From positions 608,001 through 672,000 of the forward strand of contig OZ247587.1 in NCBI GenBank assembly GCA_965233865.1: a stretch of DNA of 64,000 nucleotides, given 5' to 3'. The DNA comes from Candidatus Neptunichlamydia sp. (GTDB lineage Bacteria; Chlamydiota; Chlamydiia; Chlamydiales; Simkaniaceae). Below are positions 2,301 through 61,523 of this stretch, piece after piece. The notes below the pieces were generated by a model, which had not been told where the DNA came from, ran no database searches, and worked only from the letters and a program-made list of their open reading frames with translations. Every line of letters begins with the position of its first letter. Within the stretch, counting starts at the first letter, position 1. A program made the position numbers and the translations under genes.

Positions 2301-2716
2301 GGGGGTGCATTGGTTTCGACTTGGAAGCAAAGTACCGATGGCATGCAGAGGATTCGGTTGGCCTCTTAAAAAAGCCGAGACGACATAACTGTCAAAAAAT
2401 CAAATGTTGTAAGCATCGCTTCTCACGCTGGTTTCACTAGCGAAGGTGCGGTTGCTGCGGTTGCTGCTTAAGACCTAATCCGTCTTTGTAGCCGACCCTC
2501 TAAGATTGAACCAGGGATCTTGGAAAGGTTGTCATAGATCTTGGCATGAGCTACTGCCGCTTGACTTCCAGAGGTAGTGTTTCGAGATTAAAGGAAGTGT
2601 GCGGGCCCTTAGTGGGGTTCCTTACAGCAAGGCTTGCACTATAAATTAAGGGACTAAGCATGTAGGCATTGTTATAGAGTTTACTAAGGACGAGAGTTCG
2701 AATCTCTCCACCTCCA
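2301..2716 (+). ncRNA. ssrA: tmRNA
   Basis: 5' GGGGGTGCATTGGTTTCGAC; 3' T-arm GAGAGTTCGAATCTCTCCACCTCCA pairs with the 5' end. Tag ORF 2391-2471 after ATAACT reads VKKSNVVSIASHAGFTSEGAVAAVAA*. Confidence 0.96.
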
Positions 2717-2725
2717 ATCCAATTT

Positions 2726-24335: not shown

Positions 24336-25183
24336 TCAAGAAAAAGTCAAGATTTCTACCCATAAAGCCAAACATCTGATCTGAACCGCAGCCAAGAAAG
24401 AGGATGCATGCTTAGCATAGTGTGTAGCAATTCCTCTCCATCGCTTCAAATGTAAAAAAGCATTTTCTACAAGATGTCTCAATTTATAGAGATGCTTATC
24501 ATAAGCTCTCTTGCTTTTCCTATTTTTTCTGGGAAGGGTAACCGTCTTCATTCCTTGAGAGTTCGTTTGAGTTACGATTGCATCGCTGTCATAACCCCGA
24601 TCTGCTAGTAGGTAATCGGCGTTAATTCCCTCTATTAGGTGTTTGGCCTGAAGGTAGTCTGATTGAGTACCTGACGTAATAATCGCTCTGACCGGCATAC
24701 CATGCGAATCCACGGCCAAATGCAATTTCGTGTTGAGCCCCCTTTTGTCCGAGCCATATCTTGATTGCCACCTTGTGCACCTGCTGCGTGAGAGTGAACT
24801 TTGATATGGGTTGCATCGATCATTAACCACTCGTAATCAGGATCGTCCACTACTTTTTCCAGAAGAAGTTCCCAGACACCTTTATTCCCCCAACGGATAA
24901 AACGACGATGCACATTTCCCCAGTTCCCATAGTCTGGAGGTAAGTCACGCCATGGAGCTCCGGTACGAATAATCCAAAAAACCGCGTTGATAAATCGCCG
25001 ATTATCTTGTGCTACCCCTCCCCACACCCCTCTTCTTCCTAGAAGATAAGGTTCAAGTTTTTTTCAAATTCGATCTGAAAATATCGTGACGTCTGTGCGC
25101 TGGTACGGTCATCTCTAAACCTCTCCTTGAAAGTTTAAGAAACCAGCTTAGCACAAATTTAAACTTGTGTTTACACTATCTAG
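24336..25183 (-). mobile_element. IS5-family (IS427-like) element, degenerate
   Basis: RTGAPWRDLP, IDATHIKVH, TKLHLAVD, ADRGYDS, ENAFLHLKRWRGIAT. Disruptions near the 5' end and a truncated 3' end. Confidence 0.9.
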
Positions 25184-50459: not shown

Positions 50460-50513
50460 CTTCGGAGATCTCCAAGACGAGTACAAAGACTCTGTTTTAT
50501 CTCGGGTATGTTA

Positions 50514-51338
50514 GGTTGTGTTGAGAAATTTCCATAAATGGTGCAAGCTGACTTCCTGAAGAAGGAGATCTATATGCTATACCCGCATAAAATAAATGAC
50601 CACGCCTGGTCGAAACTTTACGAATATCTGAGTAATTACCCCAAAATACATACAAATAACAAAGAGAAAACTCGTTGCTTTGTAGAGGCTGTATTTTGGA
50701 TTGCCAAGAGTGGAGCACAATGGCGTTTGCTACCAAAGGAATATGGAGACTAGAATGCCGTCTATCATCGTTTTGCAGACTGGGCTGAACATGGTGTGTG
50801 GTACAAGATGCTCTACTATTTTTCAAATGATCCAGACATGGAATATATTATGATCGACAGTACAGTCCTCCGCGCTCATGCCTGTGCCGCAGGAGCCAAT
50901 AAAAAAAAACCGGAGGTCAAGACGAGCAGGCCTTAGGTCGGTCCTGCGGAGGTTTTACGACTAAAATCCATAGTATCTGTGATGCATTAGGTAATCCACT
51001 TGATTTTATTTTAACAGGTGGTCAAGCAGCTGATTGTCATCAAGCTATTCCTTTGCTCAAAGGTAGGGATTACAAAGGCTACGACAGCAATGCAATCATT
51101 GATCATGTAAAGAGCATCGGAGCTGTTGCCATCATTCCCTCAAAGAAAAATCGCATTGATCATCGAGAGCATGATAAAGACATATATAAAGAACGACACA
51201 AAATCGAATGTTTATTTGGCTTCCTCAAACATTATAGACGATTGTTTTCTCGGTTCGAGAAGTTAGCATCAAGGTTCAAGGCATTCCTTCATTTTATCGC
51301 GGCTCTCCAATGGTTAAAGTAAATTTCTCAACACAACC
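50514..51338 (+). mobile_element. IS5-family element, inactivated copy
   Basis: IRs GGTTGTGTTGAGAAATTT with TA flanks. Relative to 62471-63313 it has TGG>TAG at 50751 and an 18-bp deletion in the LLADKG region. Confidence 0.93.
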
Positions 51339-51340
51339 TA

Positions 51341-53162: not shown

Positions 53163-53280
53163 GGATTTTCATGAGAAAAATGGTGAGATCTTGTAGACTT
53201 TTTAAAGAGTCTTCTTCTATTTTTTTACGGCCACCGGATTCCATTTCATAGAGGCGGTTTAATCTATCCTGCATTGACAT
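53149..53280 (-). pseudogene. Truncated partner gene of U-box cassette 4
   Basis: ATG overlaps the end of the U-box gene. MSMQDRLNRLYEMESGGRKKIEEDSLK resembles SSLGRLYEQGKIDEVTLK of 60073-61083, then runs into the htrA 3' end. Confidence 0.5.
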
Positions 53281-53743
53281 TTTCTTTCTTGCTTATTTCT
53301 TTAAATACTTTTGTTATTTTTTGTAGATGCTCGACTACTCCCTCTAATGGAACGCACTCTGATATTTCATTTTTATATATTCTGCTTTTACAAACTGGGC
53401 AGCCTATTCCATTGCCTTGATCTACTGTTTGTCTACTTGATACAAGCGATCTGATTGTTTCTCTATTTAAAACATGCCCACATTTAAACACTCCTGGGAT
53501 GTTGTCCAGATTAAAAGGCTCCATAGTCACAGGGTCCAACGCATCAGGAGGAAGTTCCTCGCATAATGGCCTGAGTTCTTCTACTATCCCATCATTCTTT
53601 ATCTTGCTGGCCTTTACATCACGAACCTCAGATTCTTGAAGTTTCAATTGATCTCGCATTTCAGCTTCCTGCGTTTCAAGCTGCTGTCTGACAAATTGTT
53701 CAAAGTAAATAGTGTTTGATTGTAGACTTAATATGGCTGTCAT
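53264..53743 (-). CDS. U-box/RING-like E3 ligase protein (copy 4)
   Basis: Coiled coil, then EELPPDALDPVTMEP...CGH...CPVC. Start placed at MTAILS from the shared RBS context. Confidence 0.8.
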   Translation of the reverse strand: MTAILSLQSNTIYFEQFVRQQLETQEAEMRDQLKLQESEVRDVKASKIKNDGIVEELRPLCEELPPDALDPVTMEPFNLDNIPGVFKCGHVLNRETIRSLVSSRQTVDQGNGIGCPVCKSRIYKNEISECVPLEGVVEHLQKITKVFKEISKKENVNAG

Positions 53744-53933
53744 CTTGTTTATCCTCTTACCTTTATTATAACATACTCTGCACGGAATCATTGAATGAAA
53801 TCGTTCAAAATCAAAAATATTTTAGACCTTCGTTTCATAAAAATTCAACGCTTGCTGTTTACTGGATTTATATTTGCTGGTAAAGCTACAAAGGGATAAA
53901 ATGAGAATTAGACGAAAACAATGGATGATAATC

Positions 53934-54248
53934 ATGGACTGGACGCAAGCACTTACTGTTATAGGAGTTTTCATTGGTGGGTTTATCTACATGATGAACA
54001 AAATAGACGCAAATAAGAAAGACACTGATACAAAAATGGAGTCTCATCAAAAAGAAAATAACACACGCTTTAATGGCATAGAAAACCGTTTAACTGCCAT
54101 GGAAGTTGAAGTTAAAAACATCAATCAAAGAATCGATGACTTTAAACATGAAACAAGCCAAAGACTCTCTACGATTGAAGGGTATCTAGTCCCAAAGAAG
54201 GTATTTCACTTTGAGGAAAATAAAGACGAAGAACCCAAAGAGAACTAA
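53934..54248 (+). CDS. Small membrane-anchored coiled-coil protein
   Basis: MDWTQALTVIGVFIGGFIYM TM segment followed by heptad repeats. Confidence 0.7.
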   Translation: MDWTQALTVIGVFIGGFIYMMNKIDANKKDTDTKMESHQKENNTRFNGIENRLTAMEVEVKNINQRIDDFKHETSQRLSTIEGYLVPKKVFHFEENKDEEPKEN

Positions 54249-54372
54249 GACATCTATCATGCTAACTGATAATGAAATGCTACAAAAACTTCAGGAATCT
54301 TTAGAGCTAAGATTCGATGATCAGAAGGATTTATTTCTGTACGAATGCCCAAAAAATAGCAATCAGCTTTTG

Positions 54373-54813
54373 CTATTTACTCTCTGAAGAATTTTCTATC
54401 TCAGGAAGCTCATTTCTATGATGATCTAGGGCTTCTTTTTTGATCTTTTTAACAGCTTCTTTCCAGGTTGGTCTATTCAAGAATTTAATGCTTTCAACAT
54501 AGGCATCAGCTTTATCAAGCTCTTCAGCAAATTTGTAATATCTAAAGGGAGGCTGCACTTTTACTCTATGATCCTTGGAAATACTATAGACGATATTACG
54601 AAGCTCTATCCCAACATGCGGCACCTTGATTTTTACTGTGCTTTGAGCTATCCACTTTGATTTCACTTTGCTGTAGGGATAAATCTCTAGGACTTCTGTT
54701 TCCTCCATAATTGAAGCCTCTTCAGCTGTGGATGGTGCTTCATTAGCTTTTTCCTTTTTCTTTCGTTTAATTCTCTCTTTTGCCGTTTCTGCGACTGTGC
54801 TCTCTTGAGTCAC
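54373..54813 (-). CDS. Hypothetical protein with SpoVG-like pattern
   Basis: Beta-strand core GIELRNIVYSISKDHRVKVQPPFR plus a C-terminal helix; paralog at 7084. Confidence 0.6.
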   Translation of the reverse strand: MTQESTVAETAKERIKRKKKEKANEAPSTAEEASIMEETEVLEIYPYSKVKSKWIAQSTVKIKVPHVGIELRNIVYSISKDHRVKVQPPFRYYKFAEELDKADAYVESIKFLNRPTWKEAVKKIKKEALDHHRNELPEIENSSESK

Positions 54814-54856
54814 TTTTTTACCCTGTTACTCCACTGTAAATTTTTAGTTGTAAGTT

Positions 54857-55201
54857 CTAATCATAATCTTTGAATTGCGCTCTATCTGACAATGCTTTTG
54901 GTCGTTTGAAACTTCTTGGCAGTACAGAATCTCTACTACTGAAGTTCATAGATTTCGCAACTTTAGGACGAGCTTCTTTGGCTATAATAATATTGCCTTC
55001 AAGATTTGCACTATCAAGTCTTCTGATTGCTAGTTTTGCTTCGGAATCTACCAGCATTGTAACAAATCCAAAGCCACGGGATACTTGCGTTTCATGATCT
55101 ACGATGACTTTTGCGGACAATACTTTTCCATATATGCTGAAGAGTTCTTTGAGTTGAGATGATGTTACGCTTAAGGGGAGGTTTTTTACGAATATATCCA
55201 T
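54857..55201 (-). CDS. RRM-domain RNA-binding protein
   Basis: RNP2 IFVKNL, RNP1 RGFGFVTM, and EARP ending. Confidence 0.93.
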   Translation of the reverse strand: MDIFVKNLPLSVTSSQLKELFSIYGKVLSAKVIVDHETQVSRGFGFVTMLVDSEAKLAIRRLDSANLEGNIIIAKEARPKVAKSMNFSSRDSVLPRSFKRPKALSDRAQFKDYD

Positions 55202-55212
55202 GCTTTATCCTT

Positions 55213-55728
55213 TTAAACTTCGCTATTAATCATCCTTATGGCCTTGAGGTACCTTCCAAAGTGAGCTTTTTGTAGATAATTTAAGAGCTTTCTTCTTGCA
55301 AAGACATATCTTACTAAGAGCGCTCTCATGCTTAAGAACTCCTTAGTTTCTTTATCAACGCCATGCATGTCTATTTCTAATCTTTGAATTTTTTCGGTAT
55401 ATACGCCAATTTCCACGTCGCATGAAGCATTGTCCTGAGGAGATGTTTGCCACCGTTTGATGATGTCGCGCATGTCAACGATGTCAATACTATCAACCGT
55501 GCTTGATTTATTAGAAAGAGGCTTGCTTTTCTTGACTCTACTCGGAGGGACAAAATTTCGGATGGTTTTTTCGCAGTAGAAATTCTTGCCACTTACTTTC
55601 TTGCTTGGTTGAAAAACTCTTCTAGAAAGATAGCCTTTGAATAAATCTATAGAACAGCCAATGATCTGCGCTGCTTGCTTGGTGCTGATTAACTGACTTG
55701 TTTGTTGCGATTGTGTTTTCTCTGACAA
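55213..55728 (-). CDS. Excisionase/MerR-type HTH fused to a ribosomal protein S15-like domain
   Basis: N-terminal LISTKQAAQIIGCS HTH; C-terminal DNASCDVEIGVYTEKIQRL...RRKLLNYLQK...RY. TTG start at 55728 after AGGAG. Confidence 0.75.
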   Translation of the reverse strand: MSEKTQSQQTSQLISTKQAAQIIGCSIDLFKGYLSRRVFQPSKKVSGKNFYCEKTIRNFVPPSRVKKSKPLSNKSSTVDSIDIVDMRDIIKRWQTSPQDNASCDVEIGVYTEKIQRLEIDMHGVDKETKEFLSMRALLVRYVFARRKLLNYLQKAHFGRYLKAIRMINSEV

Positions 55729-55771
55729 GCTCTCACTTCTCCTTCTTAAAAAAGAAAGATACTTCCATAAA

Positions 55772-56512
55772 TCACGGTTTAGGAACAAGCTTTTCGTAAG
55801 CTGTCTTTGCAGCAATTTGCTCGGCTTGCTTTTTTGAGGTGCTTTCTCCTGTAGAGAGGTTATCGTCATTGAGGGTTAATTTTACTTTGAACATTGGAGC
55901 ATGATCAGGGCCGCTTCGTTCTGCGAGTGTGAAGATTAGTTGTCCCATACGATTTTTTTGGCAAAACTCATTCAAGAGGCTTTTCCAGTTCTTTTCAGCG
56001 AATTCTAAGGAATCCTCCAGCTCAATATTGAATTTATCAAGAAACATGTTGTGTATTGGCTCTAGAGATTTCCCAGCGTCGAGATATACAGCAGTTAGGA
56101 TTGCCTTAAAACATTTTCCTTTGAATGGAGCGATCTGTGCATCTGGGTTGATTAAGCCATGAGGGCATTGATATAGGTAGTGATTAAAAACCTGAAGTTT
56201 GTCGATGTACTTAACACAAGCATCGTTGCTAATATGCTTCGTTAGCATGGTGTTTTTTATGGACTTGTCTGCAGAGTGATGGTTCGCTTCGATATAGTCT
56301 GCGATAGCAAGCTGCAAAAGATAGTTTCCACGCCATACGAAATCTTCATTGGTTTCTCCGTCGTCGCTGACCATCCCCACCAAAGGAAAGCTAGAGTCCA
56401 TAAATGCTCTTGTTAGTAGATCCGTATCGTTGAATTTATGAGAGAGAGACTTTTCGATATTAGGAATGTTTTTCTGAAGGCTTGAGACCATTTGTATTGC
56501 TAGATTTGTCAT
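55772..56512 (-). CDS. RNase III-like protein with dsRBD; catalytic residues lost
   Basis: FNDTDLLTRAF; NEDFVWRGN in place of NERLEFLGD; GKCFKAILTAVYLD in place of ADxxEA; dsRBD KSLLNEFCQK...GPDHAPMF...SKKQAEQIAA. Confidence 0.9.
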   Translation of the reverse strand: MTNLAIQMVSSLQKNIPNIEKSLSHKFNDTDLLTRAFMDSSFPLVGMVSDDGETNEDFVWRGNYLLQLAIADYIEANHHSADKSIKNTMLTKHISNDACVKYIDKLQVFNHYLYQCPHGLINPDAQIAPFKGKCFKAILTAVYLDAGKSLEPIHNMFLDKFNIELEDSLEFAEKNWKSLLNEFCQKNRMGQLIFTLAERSGPDHAPMFKVKLTLNDDNLSTGESTSKKQAEQIAAKTAYEKLVPKP

Positions 56513-56701
56513 AAGAGGGGCCTTTTATTTTGTTTTGGGTGAAAGATTAACACAAAGAGAAATTTTGGGGAGATCTCCAAAAAACAAGGCTCAGATTTGC
56601 GCTGTGTTGCGCTGTTGGAGACTTAGAGTTGTGTTGGGATTGCGAGAAGATAAATCAGCTTAAAACGTGATTAAATGAGAATATGCGTGTTTAAGTATAA
56701 T

Positions 56702-56738
56702 TAGTTGGGATTTGGAAGGCTTTAATGTGAATTTAGTT
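56702..56738. repeat. 37-bp cassette-end repeat, copy 1
   Basis: TAGTTGGGATTTGGAAGGCTTTAATGTGAATTTAGTT; 35 of 37 identical to 60032-60068. Both copies lie just past a partner-gene stop. Confidence 0.9.
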
Positions 56739-56755
56739 AAAGTTTACGAAAAATA

Positions 56756-57937
56756 TCAAGTTCCAAAGTGACTATTGAAGGTGTTAAATAATTCTGGTCT
56801 ATTTGCAAAGCGCCCTTGTCCAATAAGAATATCTCGAAGTGATTCATTTACTTGTTCTCCATCATCATCAAATTGGGGGTAATCGTCCTCAATTATTGAT
56901 TTAATAAACCCTTTCCCACGCAACATATGACCTGGATGGAGATTTGCATAGTTTTCAACTGTGTCTTGGAAGTTTTCCTCCCCAAGACCTGAATTTATTC
57001 CAATATGACCGAGACGAGGACGTTTACCAAATTCTCTCCTAGCTGCATTCTCGTCATTTTCTATATTTCTGGCCTCTTCTAGGTCTGAATATAATGATGG
57101 AATTCCAGATGGATGAATCATTGGCAATGGAATAGATCTTCTGTTTATGGACTCTTGAGGATCTTTTAAAAAGGCTCTTTGATGGCCGTGTTCATGAAGC
57201 AAGTCATCTACAGTTCTTGGTTGTTTACCATAGAACGTACGTCCTTCATAATCATGACGCATTCTTGTGGAATCTTCTGATTCTTCCTCGTCACTAGGAA
57301 ATAAAAGTTCACCGCTATTAAGTTGTGATTGAGTAAATGGTGCCTTCTTTCCAGGAGGTTCGTATATCTCTAGATGATGTAAGGGCTCCGTTCCGTATCC
57401 AGTAACCATGTCTTTTTGCTCGAATTGTCCATCTGCTCCTTGCTTAACTCCGAAACCAAACCTATTACTGTGCGAGAATGGTAGCTTTGATTTTTGATGT
57501 TTTTCTATGTCATCCAGTAAAACTTTAAAATAACTTGGAGCTCCCTTAGATGCTATTCTTGCATCTTCCATAATCGCGTCTTTATCTTCAGAATCACCAC
57601 TAAAATCAAATAAGGATTCGTATCTATCTGTCAATACGTCTGAGAGGGAGCGCTGAGATGGTAATGGAAACTTCGCCTGCCTAGCTGGGAGGCCTCCTGT
57701 ATTGAAAGTATAGTTTAACTCCTTGGAATCTAAAGGAAATTTTGATTGACGTGTGGGGACTGATTCTGGACCAACATGCACGACATTTTTTCTTATTGGG
57801 CGTGAAGAGTCCACGTAGACTACATTTTCCCTCACTCTTTGAGGGGAATCAACGTAAACTACACTTTCTCTTTTTGTACCTTTTTTTTGCATTTTCAGGT
57901 TCAAGCGCTGCTGCTTTCTTCTTCGGTTGTGCTTCAT
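56756..57937 (-). CDS. Putative effector with C-terminal HExxH metallopeptidase (M91/NleD-like)
   Basis: LLHEHGH...EEARNI...ENAARREFGKRPRLGH; basic, repetitive N-terminus. Confidence 0.7.
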   Translation of the reverse strand: MKHNRRRKQQRLNLKMQKKGTKRESVVYVDSPQRVRENVVYVDSSRPIRKNVVHVGPESVPTRQSKFPLDSKELNYTFNTGGLPARQAKFPLPSQRSLSDVLTDRYESLFDFSGDSEDKDAIMEDARIASKGAPSYFKVLLDDIEKHQKSKLPFSHSNRFGFGVKQGADGQFEQKDMVTGYGTEPLHHLEIYEPPGKKAPFTQSQLNSGELLFPSDEEESEDSTRMRHDYEGRTFYGKQPRTVDDLLHEHGHQRAFLKDPQESINRRSIPLPMIHPSGIPSLYSDLEEARNIENDENAARREFGKRPRLGHIGINSGLGEENFQDTVENYANLHPGHMLRGKGFIKSIIEDDYPQFDDDGEQVNESLRDILIGQGRFANRPELFNTFNSHFGT

Positions 57938-58388
57938 TATTTTTTACCGTTTTTTTAAAAATTTTTGTTACTTTTTCAAGATGTTCTACTGTTTCATCAA
58001 ATGACTGATCATACAAGAAAAAATAGCCTCTTGTTTCTGTTCGACAAACTGGACAAGGTATCATGTCGTCTTTTGCCAACCCCATTGATTTTGCAACACT
58101 AACAGCCGTTTCAGAGCTTAATGAATGGCTACAACGCATCACTAAAGGAGTTCTCATCGGTTCATATGTCACTGGATCTAAAGCACAGTCAGGCAATTCT
58201 TCACAAAGTGGTCTTAGTTCTTCTACGATTCTATTATTCGTTATATTCTTAGCTTGCACTTCCCCCATCTCAGCTTCCCGTTCTTTTAGTTGGTCTCGCA
58301 TTTCGGATTCTTGTGTTTCCAGCTGACTACGCATGGCATTTTCAAAATAAGAAATGGTTCTCGTTGGTGTAATTGCTATGGATGACAT
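57849..58388 (-). CDS. U-box/RING-like E3 ligase protein (copy 3)
   Basis: EELPDCALDPVTYEPMRTPLVMRCSH...CPVC; AAGGAG RBS; basic tail KKRYKKRK. Confidence 0.82.
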   Translation of the reverse strand: MSSIAITPTRTISYFENAMRSQLETQESEMRDQLKEREAEMGEVQAKNITNNRIVEELRPLCEELPDCALDPVTYEPMRTPLVMRCSHSLSSETAVSVAKSMGLAKDDMIPCPVCRTETRGYFFLYDQSFDETVEHLEKVTKIFKKTVKNNEAQPKKKAAALEPENAKKRYKKRKCSLR

Positions 58389-60072: not shown

Positions 60073-61083
60073 TTATCGCATTTGTTGAAGAACAGGATCT
60101 GCAAAGGCTGTGTTGTAGCGAAGAGTTGTTTCTTTTCCATCCATTCCTTTCTCTTTGTAAAATTCATCTACAACGTCTTTTAGCCAACTTCGGGAAAAAT
60201 TACCGCTTCCCCGGTTTTTACTCCATAAAGAACGTACTGGATTACTCTCTCCAGTTCTTGTCATAAAAACATGGTCTCCTGGACTTTCGTCGTTTGCAAA
60301 TATAACAGATCCAGCAGGAATATTGTGTTTTCCAGATTGCACGTCATCATAGCTAACGGTTTTTCGAGTATCCTTAGGGTCAAGCACACTTAATAGACTG
60401 TCTGAATATGCGCGACCGACCGTTGGTCTCTTTTCTCCCCCCGGAAAATCAGCCGTAAGCCTTTCTCTGAGCTTTTCTTTATCTAGTTTTTCTCTTGAAA
60501 GAAGGTCGTAGCAAACACCTTCATAGCAATTCATCTTATTCGGTTTGTAATCGGAGTTTCCGTGAAGCCAGTCAGCAAATTGAGTTTGTTCTAGTCGGTC
60601 CGTGTTAATTGGCTCCCATTCGAGATTGTTGTAATATAGAGCTTCATCGGGTGGGGTTTCGCTTCTTTTTTGAAATGGGATTTTTCTTACGTCTTCTTGA
60701 AGATCTTCGGGACGGTAACGTCTTGCTGAACTAGATTTTGATCTTATGTTTTTGGGGAGTCCCCTTAAGTCTTCTTGTAAATCTTCGGGACGGTAACGTT
60801 CTTCCCCTAACCTTGAGTTTCTTGCTTCATATTCTGTTGTATATAAAGGCTTCATTGCTTTTTCGTATTCAGTCTCTACAGGATCGCCAGGGCGATAGTT
60901 TTGAAGCGCGTCCCTAAGTGAGACTTTATTTTCCCGTGCATCTTTTGCTCGTTGGTACATGTCTTTAAGGGTTACTTCGTCTATCTTGCCTTGTTCGTAG
61001 AGTCGGCCAAGACTACTAAGAATGCTCTCTTCTTCGCTTTCTAGATCTAGTGGTTGTTTAAGAGGATCAATGTAGTAGCTCAT
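60073..61083 (-). CDS. Putative effector with papain-like (NlpC/P60-type) Cys-His domain
   Basis: MNCYEGVCYDL...IPAGSVIF...DHVFMT...VRSLWS; RYRPEDLQED repeated twice; ATGA overlap with the upstream U-box gene. Confidence 0.68.
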   Translation of the reverse strand: MSYYIDPLKQPLDLESEEESILSSLGRLYEQGKIDEVTLKDMYQRAKDARENKVSLRDALQNYRPGDPVETEYEKAMKPLYTTEYEARNSRLGEERYRPEDLQEDLRGLPKNIRSKSSSARRYRPEDLQEDVRKIPFQKRSETPPDEALYYNNLEWEPINTDRLEQTQFADWLHGNSDYKPNKMNCYEGVCYDLLSREKLDKEKLRERLTADFPGGEKRPTVGRAYSDSLLSVLDPKDTRKTVSYDDVQSGKHNIPAGSVIFANDESPGDHVFMTRTGESNPVRSLWSKNRGSGNFSRSWLKDVVDEFYKEKGMDGKETTLRYNTAFADPVLQQMR

Positions 61084-61523
61084 GTGTTCTTCGCAAATAC
61101 CTTACTTATTTTTTCAAAAATTTCAACGCAGCCCTTTAGACTTACAGAAACAAAAAAATCATTTAGAACGGATTTATTCTTACATACCGGACAACTCATT
61201 AGGTCTTGTTGGCATAAATTGCTAGCCTTCGCAATAGCGACTATTGTCGAGGAATTTATAGTGTGACCACATCCATACGTTGCTGGCTTATAAAGAGGCT
61301 CCATGGTCACAGGGTCCAATGCATCATTAGGAATCTCCTCACAAAGTGGTCTCAACTCTTCTACAATCTTGCTGTCTCTTGCCTTTTCATACTTAAGCTC
61401 TCTTACTTCAGCTTCTCGTTCTTTTAATTCTGCTCGCGCTTCGGATTCTTGCGTTTCGAGCTGATCTCTGACAAATTGCTCAAAGTACATCGTGTTGTTT
61501 TGAATGCTTAATATGACGGACAT
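61080..61523 (-). CDS. U-box/RING-like E3 ligase protein (copy 1)
   Basis: EEIPNDALDPVTMEPLYKPATYGCGH...CPVC; start at MSVILS. Confidence 0.82.
   Translation of the reverse strand: MSVILSIQNNTMYFEQFVRDQLETQESEARAELKEREAEVRELKYEKARDSKIVEELRPLCEEIPNDALDPVTMEPLYKPATYGCGHTINSSTIVAIAKASNLCQQDLMSCPVCKNKSVLNDFFVSVSLKGCVEIFEKISKVFAKNT

Follow-up and report, generated by a model that had tools for sequence, protein, structure and literature searches.

A mobile-element RNase III paralogue of Chlamydiae that has probably become a non-cleaving binder of double-stranded RNA

A gene of Candidatus Neptunichlamydia sp. was found to encode an RNase III homologue in which all four catalytic carboxylates have been replaced. 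We consider it probable that the product, here termed pseudo-RNase III, is a pseudo-enzyme, that is, an RNase III paralogue in which two-metal catalysis is permanently lost and which persists as a homodimeric, non-cleaving dsRNA binder. It is not a product of decay, since the replacements are fixed in 28 homologues and the gene is under strong purifying selection. The window, which is the whole stretch of DNA that was analysed, comprised 64,000 nt (GCA_965233865.1, OZ247587.1, positions 608,001-672,000 of the forward strand).

Table 1. Location of the pseudo-RNase III gene, its motifs and its neighbours in the window.
Feature	Position in window	Strand	Basis or remark
Pseudo-RNase III gene	55772..56512	-	ATG start, 246 aa; ORF list, Pfam, NCBIfam, PDB alignments
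Altered signature helix ETNEDFVWRGN, codons 53-63	56324..56356	-	HMMER/PDB alignment and 28-sequence alignment
His-His pair, codons 78-79, end of signature helix	56276..56281	-	28/28 sequences
Second catalytic motif PFKGKCFK, codons 129-136	56105..56128	-	D114 -> K133, E117 -> K136
dsRBD, residues 176-242	55787..55987	-	Helix-1, GPxH-loop and KKxAE stretches conserved
HTH (excisionase/MerR-like) and ribosomal-protein-S15-like gene	55213..55728	-	Pfam S15 39.2 versus cut-off 31
Small RRM protein gene, canonical RNP1 and RNP2	54857..55201	-	Pfam RRM_1 E-value 8e-19
146-aa protein gene	54373..54813	-	Distant relative of ~105-aa 'IPYY' proteins of metagenomic operons
Duplicated 4.1-kb segment	53552..57650	.	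Inverted second copy at C1:185692-189776

Pseudo-RNase III has the canonical arrangement, with an RNase III fold at approximately residues 20-150 and a dsRBD on its C-terminal side. Full-length HMMER alignments were obtained to the solved proteins of C. jejuni (3n3w), T. maritima (1o0w) and A. aeolicus (2ez6), the AF2 model had a pLDDT of 82, and the best Foldseek matches were A. aeolicus RNase III-dsRNA complexes, the first being 2nug (E-value 1.8e-11). The dsRBD was complete, covering positions 1-66 of the 66-position Pfam profile dsrm (PF00035) with a score of 70.6 bits (cut-off 23, E-value 1.6e-19), and its conserved columns were N175, K177, E182, Q185, G201, H204, K227, E231 and Q232. The nuclease-like half scored below the curated cut-offs of the RNase III family, at 21.4 versus 35 for PF14622 and 95.3 versus 166.25 bits for TIGR02191.

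The sequence-only reading of this locus had proposed that the signature NERLEFLGD has become NEDFVWRGN and the motif ADxxEA has become GKCFKA, with AVYLD and the dsRBD left intact, and had advised alignment to RNase III profiles. When these alignments were run, the profile cut-offs were missed, as described above, and the substitutions were seen. HMMER comparison with solved RNase III placed residues 55-63 (NEDFVWRGN) on the signature and residues 132-137 (GKCFKA) on the (A/S)DxxEA motif; AVYLD was retained, as was the dsRBD over its whole length. Each of the four Mg-binding carboxylates was replaced, as had been claimed: E41 by V59, D45 by N63, D114 by K133 and E117 by K136, in the E. coli RNase III numbering of the catalytic sites (E40, D44, D107 and E110 in A. 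aeolicus, read from the alignment). The loss extends to a fifth conserved acid, the E65 equivalent, which is K83; the E38 equivalent was kept, as E56. The natural N63 aligned with the engineered Asn of the A. aeolicus D44N crystal form. Comparison with the genome's own rnc placed the His-His pair at a site where canonical enzymes carry a hydrophobic residue and Pro, and canonical enzymes have neither this pair nor a Cys at the position of C134.

The E. coli rnc70 mutant (E117K) reportedly binds dsRNA without cleaving it and is dominant-negative. The sequence of pseudo-RNase III argues against Mg-dependent cleavage of dsRNA, because the equivalent of E117 is Lys. In reviews of RNase III, this residue (E117/E110) is described as jointly coordinating both metals and as functionally essential.

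The substitutions exceed chance, since the same changes were found in all 28 aligned homologues, which are 55-89% identical. N63, K133, K136, W60, R61, H78, H79, K131, C134 and E56 were present in 28/28 sequences, E53 was likewise invariant and D57 nearly so; W60 and R61 are family-specific interface residues. Position 59 was V in 16 sequences, M in 11 and I in one, and position 83 was K in 20, R in one and M in seven. The sequence-only reading was to be abandoned if close homologues kept the catalytic residues. No family member retained them, including the most distant, P0122 (48% identical), which has T and K at the D114 and E117 sites.

The calculation of dN/dS against homologues, which had also been advised, was carried out with a purpose-written Nei-Gojobori script and gave values from 0.047 to 0.099. 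Comparison of the window gene with the 89%-identical copy of a congener (G034) gave a dS of 1.24, a dN of 0.059 and an omega of 0.047; omega was 0.048 for L036 versus L038 and 0.099 for L038 versus L040. No ratio could be computed between the two copies in the window genome, because their nucleotide sequences are identical. By domain, omega was 0.017-0.046 for the RNase III-like part and 0.045-0.21 for the dsRBD; constraint on the nuclease-like domain thus equals or exceeds that on the dsRBD. The view that a non-cleaving form had been selected, rather than left by decay, was supported by the invariant sites and the dN/dS of 0.047. It is scarcely credible that the gene is a recent pseudogene, an rnc duplicate drifting to loss. 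Damaged copies do exist, one G034 copy being split and the window genome containing two 20-codon remnants, but the frame is intact, omega is ~0.05 over a dS above 1, and a long stem is followed by slow evolution inside the family. A decaying pseudogene was ruled out by this omega and by the invariance of the replacement residues in the 28 homologues.

In the phylogenetic tree the family formed a single clade with an SH-aLRT of 100 and a stem of 1.05 substitutions/site; it adjoined chlamydial rnc and lay apart from eukaryotic proteins, and evolution after this stem was slow. Placement inside chlamydial rnc received an SH-aLRT of 86 in a sample that is biased, since the non-chlamydial rows were chosen by similarity to the query. 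Pseudo-RNase III would be a paralogue of bacterial, and probably of chlamydial, RNase III. No intermediates between rnc and the family were seen among 1.84 billion representatives, which yielded only four matches below 1e-30: two family members and two dsRBD-only proteins.

The gene is dispensable: among 400 scored Chlamydiota genomes the only carriers were the window genome and one congener, that is, 2/15 scored genomes of the genus. Metagenomic members of the family were located on plasmid-like contigs of ~28-34 kb, one of them circular, and on the plasmid backbones that bear pseudo-RNase III there are also ParA, a replication-initiator-like gene and a helicase. In the window genome, the other copy of the gene encodes an identical protein, and no nucleotide differences between the two copies of the segment were found from ~53800 to 56700. 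Pseudo-RNase III is an accessory gene of mobile elements and, in the window genome, part of an integrated, duplicated island. The GC content of the island was not distinctive.

The only matches in PLSDB plasmids and INPHARED phages were canonical rnc genes, none above 28% identity, and a pattern scan of GTDB genome contigs, a set from which the window genome or its near kin may be absent, returned no relative. The sole IMG/VR match was a false positive, in which a phage tail-fibre-like protein was picked up through its ADSIEANH repeat. PADLOC reported nothing for pseudo-RNase III, its lone match being an HTH (mad1) for an S15-like homologue. In PHROGs, pseudo-RNase III matched one phrog of unknown function and the S15-like protein matched excisionase-type HTH entries.

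Homodimer prediction for pseudo-RNase III gave a score of 0.70, compared with 0.00 for the best of three controls. The score mark was reached by 20/30 proteins solved as one-chain pairs and by 1/23 solved single chains; these counts are only rough, because our own alignment was supplied to the prediction. The homodimer runs agreed in at least 74% of contacts, with a partner pLDDT of at least 76, although the predictor may have passed by reproducing RNase III dimers that are already solved. The predicted dimer uses the canonical signature helix and resembles solved complexes, and it does not separate self-pairing from pairing with the host enzyme. The predicted contacts were R61-D72'/E75', E56-K83', D57-H79' and W60-A71'/K83'/K86'. 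Most interface positions differed from those of the genome's own rnc (W/F, R/L, Q/G, E/Y, H/P and K/E, pseudo-RNase III first).

These results bear on whether pseudo-RNase III acts as a poison or modifier subunit, which would form mixed dimers with the housekeeping RNase III and either inactivate it or turn it into a single-strand nickase, the latter being likened to the dead partners of trypanosome editing endonucleases. A mixed dimer would be inactive because K83 would reach the partner's active centre at the E65-equivalent site. The predicted dimer interface lies on the same helix as in canonical RNase III, and both carrier genomes also have a normal rnc (in the window genome at C1:945935-946591, 231 bits, over the cut-off). 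Most interface positions are, however, unlike those of that rnc, and the prediction pairs the new residues with one another across the homodimer, a pattern that looks like insulation from the parent enzyme. We regard a poison subunit as rather unlikely.

The same contacts were considered as signs of a re-tooled active site, in which E53, E56, D57, H78, H79 and C134 would constitute a new metal or catalytic site at the interface, so that the protein would be more than a binder, either remaining an enzyme or sensing metals or redox state. The near-complete or complete invariance of these residues, their nature as typical metal ligands, the lack of the His-His pair and Cys in canonical enzymes and the predicted touching of H79 and the partner's D57 would all fit such a site. 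The contacts are equally well explained as salt bridges of the dimer, however, and we know of no RNase III-fold enzyme that works in this way; a re-tooled site is accordingly judged very unlikely. Irrespective of this, the invariant residues E53, E56, H78, H79 and C134 may belong to a site that serves some purpose other than RNA clamping.

The genes of the operon are closely spaced or overlapping, and their order is shuffled between clades. The S15-like gene lies downstream, 43 nt past the pseudo-RNase III stop codon, with a likely TTG start at 55728 after AAGGAG, and adjoins pseudo-RNase III in 8/10 loci. Its homologues carry HTH_17 and S15, and the protein itself could be aligned to the genome's rpsO. 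RRM genes were present in the operon in seven of the ten loci. The association is not obligatory: HTH-S15-like genes without pseudo-RNase III were found in another genome (G041) and at two further loci of the window genome, and in the L034/L035 lineage no S15 or RRM gene was found in flanks of 650 bp upstream and 1.6 kb downstream.

The 146-aa protein, which matched L040:3478-3837 by blastp (2.7e-4), may be SpoVG-like. For the IPYY protein model the best VIA match was SpoVG (2i9z_A; Z 6.2, within the common-arrangement range; rmsd 4.0 over 76 residues), and SpoVG was named on 13% of the members of one Atlas cluster, a lead for this protein. No Pfam match was obtained for it up to an E-value of 5, and Foldseek returned none.

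The upstream regions of five operons share a conserved stretch that may be a promoter or operator. An Rfam scan of the window and eight loci found no RNA near the operon, the lone match being a tmRNA at window positions 2301-2717. The inverted repeats near the operon were all short (a 15-nt palindrome at 56563-56584 and a hairpin at L040:3840-3883), and no candidate long duplex ligand was found among them.

The domains encoded here also raise the question of a secreted effector, akin to viral dsRBD suppressors, that would sequester dsRNA in the eukaryotic host, possibly together with the RRM protein, and so blunt RNAi or dsRNA sensing. It is domain content that suggests RNAi suppression: dsRBD and RRM domains are typical of eukaryotes, and the dsRBD of pseudo-RNase III matches those of PKR, ADAR, TARBP2 and DRB4. 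The island also holds three weak RING/U-box-like, effector-like ORFs that fall below the Pfam cut-offs. The gene nevertheless belongs to a closely packed operon that also encodes an HTH DNA-binding/S15-like protein, on plasmid backbones of the type described above, and the conserved N-terminus is predicted to form a helix equivalent to helix 1 of RNase III and not a disordered segment. Furthermore, sequestration would need no more than a plain dsRBD, whereas constraint is strongest on the nuclease-like domain. A role as a secreted effector is unlikely.

Our preferred reading remains that of a homodimeric, non-cleaving dsRNA binder, in which we infer RNA binding, non-cleavage and dimerisation alike from sequence comparison and modelling. 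The former catalytic valley, which homology to the Mg-ligand positions suggests is lined by K133, K136, K131 and possibly K83, would touch the RNA backbone without Mg2+. The valley and two dsRBDs would together clamp a duplex, in the manner of the engineered E110K and D44N mutants. Owing to the inter-subunit pairs R61-D72/E75, K83-E56 and H79-D57, homodimerisation would be preferred to mixed pairing with the housekeeping enzyme. The protein would work within the bacterial cell, alongside the presumably co-transcribed HTH-S15-like and RRM proteins; most plausibly it would hold RNA duplexes, structured or antisense, that come from the element or host, or shield them from RNase III.

A larger proposal, which we put forward tentatively and with low confidence, is that pseudo-RNase III is one subunit of a plasmid RNA-binding machine with HTH-S15-like, RRM and possibly SpoVG-like partners, which clamps RNAs and withholds them from RNase III. 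Pseudo-RNase III and these partners all resemble housekeeping RNA-binding proteins, either as re-tooled copies or as substitutes for them, and to our knowledge the Chlamydiae lack Hfq. If the proposal is correct, mobile elements of Chlamydiae would have their own post-transcriptional control system, in which sense-antisense or structured RNAs are clamped or, in a variant, RNase III is poisoned via K83. Through their linkage, the HTH-S15-like and RRM genes suggest that mobile elements of Chlamydiae carry a hitherto unstudied RNA-binding module.

Compared with bacterial class 1 RNase III (Rnc, TIGR02191), pseudo-RNase III has the same length, RIIID and dsRBD architecture, fold and predicted dimer helix, with ~27-34% identity and a neighbouring position in the tree to chlamydial rnc. 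It differs in lacking the four Mg ligands and the E65 equivalent, and in being an accessory of mobile elements rather than a housekeeping gene. Family members are called "ribonuclease-3" by source pipelines, a label that wrongly suggests two active RNase III enzymes and is an annotation error.

YmdB, a macrodomain protein reported to inhibit E. coli RNase III, would be a parallel in effect, both proteins reducing the action of RNase III, if pseudo-RNase III were an inhibitory subunit. Its fold is unrelated, and a Pfam scan found no macrodomain in pseudo-RNase III.

Foldseek matches also included mitoribosomal large-subunit chains (9hch_c, 6zm5_c, 3j7y_c and 4v1a_h; 17-19% identity), chains c and h being presumably mL44. 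Like pseudo-RNase III these combine a non-catalytic RNase III fold with a dsRBD, and they are structural RNA binders; they represent a ribosomal protein of eukaryotic organelles, and nothing indicates that the two are directly related. Published work describes further dead RNase III-fold proteins from organelles and trypanosome editosomes. Maize chloroplast RNC1 and trypanosome KREPB4/5 are reported to have RNase III domains with non-functional catalytic sites and RNA-related roles, and an abstract names KREPB6-8 beside them. All are eukaryotic and differ in architecture, RNC1 having two RIIIDs and the KREPB proteins PUF or zinc-finger domains, and the latter have been proposed as heterodimer partners of active nucleases. 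Pseudo-RNase III likewise has an RNase III fold that lacks the catalytic carboxylates and is under purifying selection, but it does not share descent with mL44, RNC1 or KREPB4/5, since the family groups with chlamydial rnc. No published bacterial or plasmid-borne family of dead RNase III was found in the literature covered.

The closest parallels are the laboratory mutants. The A. aeolicus E110K and D44N proteins (PDB 1rc7, 1yyo and 2ez6) have the same substitutions as the natural K136 and N63; PDB titles describe both mutants as bound to dsRNA, and they were among the top Foldseek matches. These mutants and E. coli rnc70 are single laboratory changes in an otherwise normal enzyme, whereas in pseudo-RNase III five acidic sites are changed, the interface is remodelled and the altered form has been retained by selection across the family. 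On sequence evidence the family would be a natural, selected counterpart of the classic mutants that bind but do not cut, with a charge-reversed valley and a remodelled dimer interface in addition, and it would therefore offer a clean system for the role of a dsRNA clamp in bacteria.

The pseudo-RNase III gene encodes a protein of 246 aa from an ATG start. Residues 176-242 form a complete dsRBD (Pfam, 70.6 bits; cut-off 23); the Pfam RNase III domain PF14622 was sub-threshold (21.4 against 35), and the NCBIfam RNase III equivalog aligned end to end at 95.3 bits, short of its cut-off of 166.25. Motifs were assigned from HMMER alignments to the solved enzymes of C. jejuni (3n3w), T. maritima (1o0w) and A. 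aeolicus (2ez6), in which the counterpart of NERLEFLGD was NEDFVWRGN and that of (A/S)DxxEA was GKCFKA. The A. aeolicus Mg ligands E40, D44, D107 and E110 were replaced by V59, N63, K133 and K136, positions that we take to correspond to E. coli E41, D45, D114 and E117. E56 was retained as the equivalent of E38, and K83 stood at the equivalent of E65, the fifth conserved acid. The sequence-only reading, that all four catalytic carboxylates are replaced and the dsRBD is intact, was therefore correct and, in view of K83, if anything understated. By the curated cut-offs and the catalytic residues, the protein is outside the RNase III enzyme family.

Among 5.8 billion clustered proteins, 28 clusters matched the pseudo-RNase III at 55-89% identity, after which identities fell sharply, with canonical RNase III at 30% or less. 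In an alignment of 28 sequences (the window protein and 27 of the 28 clusters), N63, K133 and K136 were present throughout, as were the family-specific residues W60, R61, D72, H78, H79, K131 and C134. Position 59 was V in 16 sequences, M in 11 and I in one; position 83 was K in 20, R in one and M in seven. Within the protein, conservation was highest in the altered motifs. When 1.84 billion representatives were scanned exhaustively with HMMER, only four matches fell below 1e-30, two of them family members and two dsRBD-only. The most distant family member (P0122, 48% identical) had the motifs NESLVWLGN and FKTTCFKS and is therefore also dead; no carboxylate-keeping intermediate was seen in these searches. 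The next-best proteins after the family, P0121 (1117 aa) and P0123 (1135 aa), contained 6-8 dsRBD-like stretches and were matched in the dsRBD part alone.

Codon-level Nei-Gojobori analysis (own script) gave an omega of 0.047 (dS 1.24, dN 0.059) for the window gene against its 89%-identical congener copy; among other homologue loci, values were 0.048 for L036 against L038 and 0.099 for L038 against L040. This genome's two copies have the same nucleotide sequence and so gave no dN/dS information. Constraint on the nuclease-like domain (omega 0.017-0.046) equalled or exceeded that on the dsRBD (0.045-0.21). The proposal that a non-cleaving form had been selected, rather than left by decay, was upheld by the fixation of the replacements in 28 homologues and an omega of about 0.05. 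Close homologues that keep the catalytic residues, named beforehand as contrary evidence, did not appear: N63, K133 and K136 were invariant, and even P0122 was dead. Pseudogenisation is contradicted by the invariant replaced residues and the low omega, and can be dismissed with near certainty.

The family came out as a single clade in a 102-row tree, with SH-aLRT 100 and a stem length of 1.05 substitutions per site. This clade adjoined the chlamydial rnc cluster, with a support of just 86 for that grouping, and the top-scoring canonical relatives were chlamydial (111 bits). Short of proof, these results fit an origin in which a duplicated chlamydial rnc would have changed rapidly and then frozen. 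The genome, a single contig of 1.83 Mb, carried a normal rnc (231 bits) and two pseudo-RNase III copies, and remnants of the gene show that it was gained and lost repeatedly within one genome. Among 400 scored genomes of the phylum, the only carriers were this genome and the congener G034 (one intact copy and one broken), which makes 2 carriers among the 15 genomes scored in the genus; the remaining matches behaved like canonical rnc in score and alignment (about 26-34% identity). A "putative dsRNA-binding protein" from Candidatus Neptunichlamydia, a genus within Simkaniaceae, was the closest named homologue, and other family members bore the JGI pipeline name "ribonuclease-3".

Metagenomic members were located on contigs of 27.8-34.2 kb. 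One of these, of 30,170 bp, had the pseudo-RNase III split over its two termini, which overlapped exactly over 123 nt, and therefore assembles as a circle. The backbone of the contigs was plasmid-type: ParA, a replication-initiator-like protein with weak PHROG matches, ResIII helicase, DUF3987, MT-A70 methylases, and paralogues of ClpX and HPr. On the circular element (about 30 kb) the ClpX and HPr paralogues adjoined ParB-like/MT-A70 methylases, and the ClpX paralogue was 56% identical to this genome's chromosomal clpX. No capsid or tail genes were seen in the parts examined, at most half of each contig record, and the elements were absent from PLSDB and INPHARED, both of which were searched. 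Chlamydial hosts are tentatively suggested by several genes that share 37-64% identity with this genome.

A gene combining HTH_17 with a ribosomal-S15-like domain adjoined the pseudo-RNase III gene in 8 of 10 loci (five of six lineages after merging near-identical loci), and one or two small RRM_1 protein genes did so in 7 of 10; a protein of about 105 aa ("IPYY") was often also encoded. These operon genes overlapped or were separated by a few bases. In the window and in G034 the pseudo-RNase III gene preceded the S15-like gene, followed in the window only by an RRM gene, none being found in the G034 flank. In other loci the order was S15, RRM, other genes and then pseudo-RNase III, and clades differed. 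The window S15-like gene most likely begins at a TTG behind AAGGAG, 43 nt past the pseudo-RNase III stop. Its S15-like domain is genuinely paralogous to the product of the genome's rpsO but diverged, and the helix 2-3 loop region is rewritten. The operon link is frequent and non-obligatory: two loci (L034, L035) had no partner genes within the available flanks, and the HTH-S15-like gene occurred without pseudo-RNase III in the congener G041 and at two places in this genome. At the G041 locus (L047) it lay behind a long ORF read from its translation as helicase-like, and neither an RRM gene nor pseudo-RNase III adjoined it. The HTH-S15 fusion is thus carried by mobile elements more widely, as an independent gene.

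The fold of the IPYY protein may be SpoVG-like: a VIA match to 2i9z_A was obtained (Z 6.2, rmsd 4.0, 76 residues aligned), SpoVG was named on 13% of the members of one Atlas cluster, and Pfam and Foldseek gave no support for it. A conserved non-coding stretch upstream of the S15-like gene in L036, L038, L040, L041 and L042, with the pieces ...CTATATAGCCCTCACCTA.AGATAG.CCAA... and ...TGGAAATATGCTTAAATAT..., may function as an operator or promoter for the HTH protein.

Location of the features (C1, this genome's contig; L-numbers, homologue loci)
Feature	Position	Strand	Remarks
Pseudo-RNase III ORF	window 55772-56512	minus	ORF call and DNA read
S15-like gene, start	window 55728		TTG, most likely
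Inverted duplication with pseudo-RNase III	window 53552-57650; C1:185692-189776		4.1 kb
Remnant	C1:1223475-1223534		last 20 codons only; S15-like gene beside it intact, 94% identical
Remnant	C1:1758966-1759025		last 20 codons only
Normal rnc	C1:945935-946591
393-aa ORF	window 56756-57937		directly upstream of pseudo-RNase III
RING/U-box-like small ORFs	window 53264-53791; 57849-58388; 61080-61553		paralogous
Resolvase gene	window 61757-62299
IS-like repeat	window 50512-51340; 62469-63315		about 848 bp, inverted copies
Second repeat	window 24350-25183		about 834 bp
tmRNA gene	window 2301-2717		Rfam RF00023, 142 bits
ClpX and PTS protein HPr paralogues	L039 4282-5496; L038/L043 2458-2868		circular element of about 30 kb
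HTH-S15-like gene without partners	L047 (G041:C3) 1492-1998

The two IS-like copies flanked an 11-kb stretch containing the operon, and at least 15 further copies (96-99% identity) were scattered over the genome; the second repeat had at least 10 copies. The 393-aa ORF contained internal short repeats of the RENVVYVDS type and had no match in Pfam, PADLOC or PHROG; parts of it recurred at three other genome loci. The three small ORFs matched zf-RING_UBOX weakly (16-21 bits; cut-off 25.2) and may be eukaryote-directed E3-ligase-like effectors. With such ORFs nearby and eukaryote-like domains of its own, the pseudo-RNase III could be a secreted effector that sequesters dsRNA, but this is unlikely, as it fits poorly with an HTH-containing plasmid operon and with a conserved, helical N-terminus.

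The AF2 model (pLDDT 82) best matched A. aeolicus RNase III-dsRNA complexes in Foldseek, the E110K and D44N mutants crystallised on dsRNA being among the best matches. A homodimer was predicted with a score of 0.70 against 0.00 for the best control (contact agreement at least 74%, pLDDT at least 76). This mark was reached by 20 of 30 solved same-chain pairs and 1 of 23 solved single chains, counts that hold only roughly because our own alignment was used, and the high score may stem from solved RNase III dimers that the predictor has learnt. The predicted interface was the signature helix, with the pairs R61-D72'/E75', E56-K83' and D57-H79' (primes, partner subunit) and W60 as an enlarged "ball". 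Most of its positions differed from those of the genome's own rnc, from which we infer that the homodimer may be insulated from the parent enzyme. That the protein poisons host Rnc, or serves as its nickase partner, has mechanistic appeal, since K83 would extend into the active centre of the partner, but the remodelled dimer interface makes it rather improbable.

K131, K133 and K136 were absent from the predicted interface contacts and, by homology, would occupy the place where the Mg ions bind; such a charge-reversed valley could contact the RNA backbone directly, without metal. According to the portion consulted of the 2013 review of RNase III mechanisms, enzyme function depends on E117/E110, which bridges the two metals, so two-metal catalysis would be excluded. 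A new metal or catalytic site formed by E53, E56, H78, H79 and C134 is highly unlikely. The predicted fold and dimer, the putative lysine valley and the predicted loss of catalysis favour a non-cleaving dimeric dsRNA clamp, which would probably act in the bacterial cytoplasm together with the operon partners.

The operon is an intriguing, unstudied RNA-binding set on mobile elements. No bacterial or plasmid-borne dead RNase III was described in the literature, searched at the level of listings and abstracts, and "RNase" and "ribonuclease" were absent from the main text of the chlamydial plasmid paper (PMC7846284). In function, the pseudo-RNase III is comparable with laboratory mutants (E117K/E110K, D44N) and with several naturally dead RNase III-fold proteins: a mitoribosomal protein that was among the fold matches, maize RNC1 and trypanosome KREPB4/5. 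In the sections consulted, RNC1 was the only protein with inactive domains named in a 2021 RNase III review, and KREPB4/5 and YmdB were treated in the 2013 review. The pseudo-RNase III is a new, narrowly distributed bacterial form of a known kind of pseudo-enzyme.
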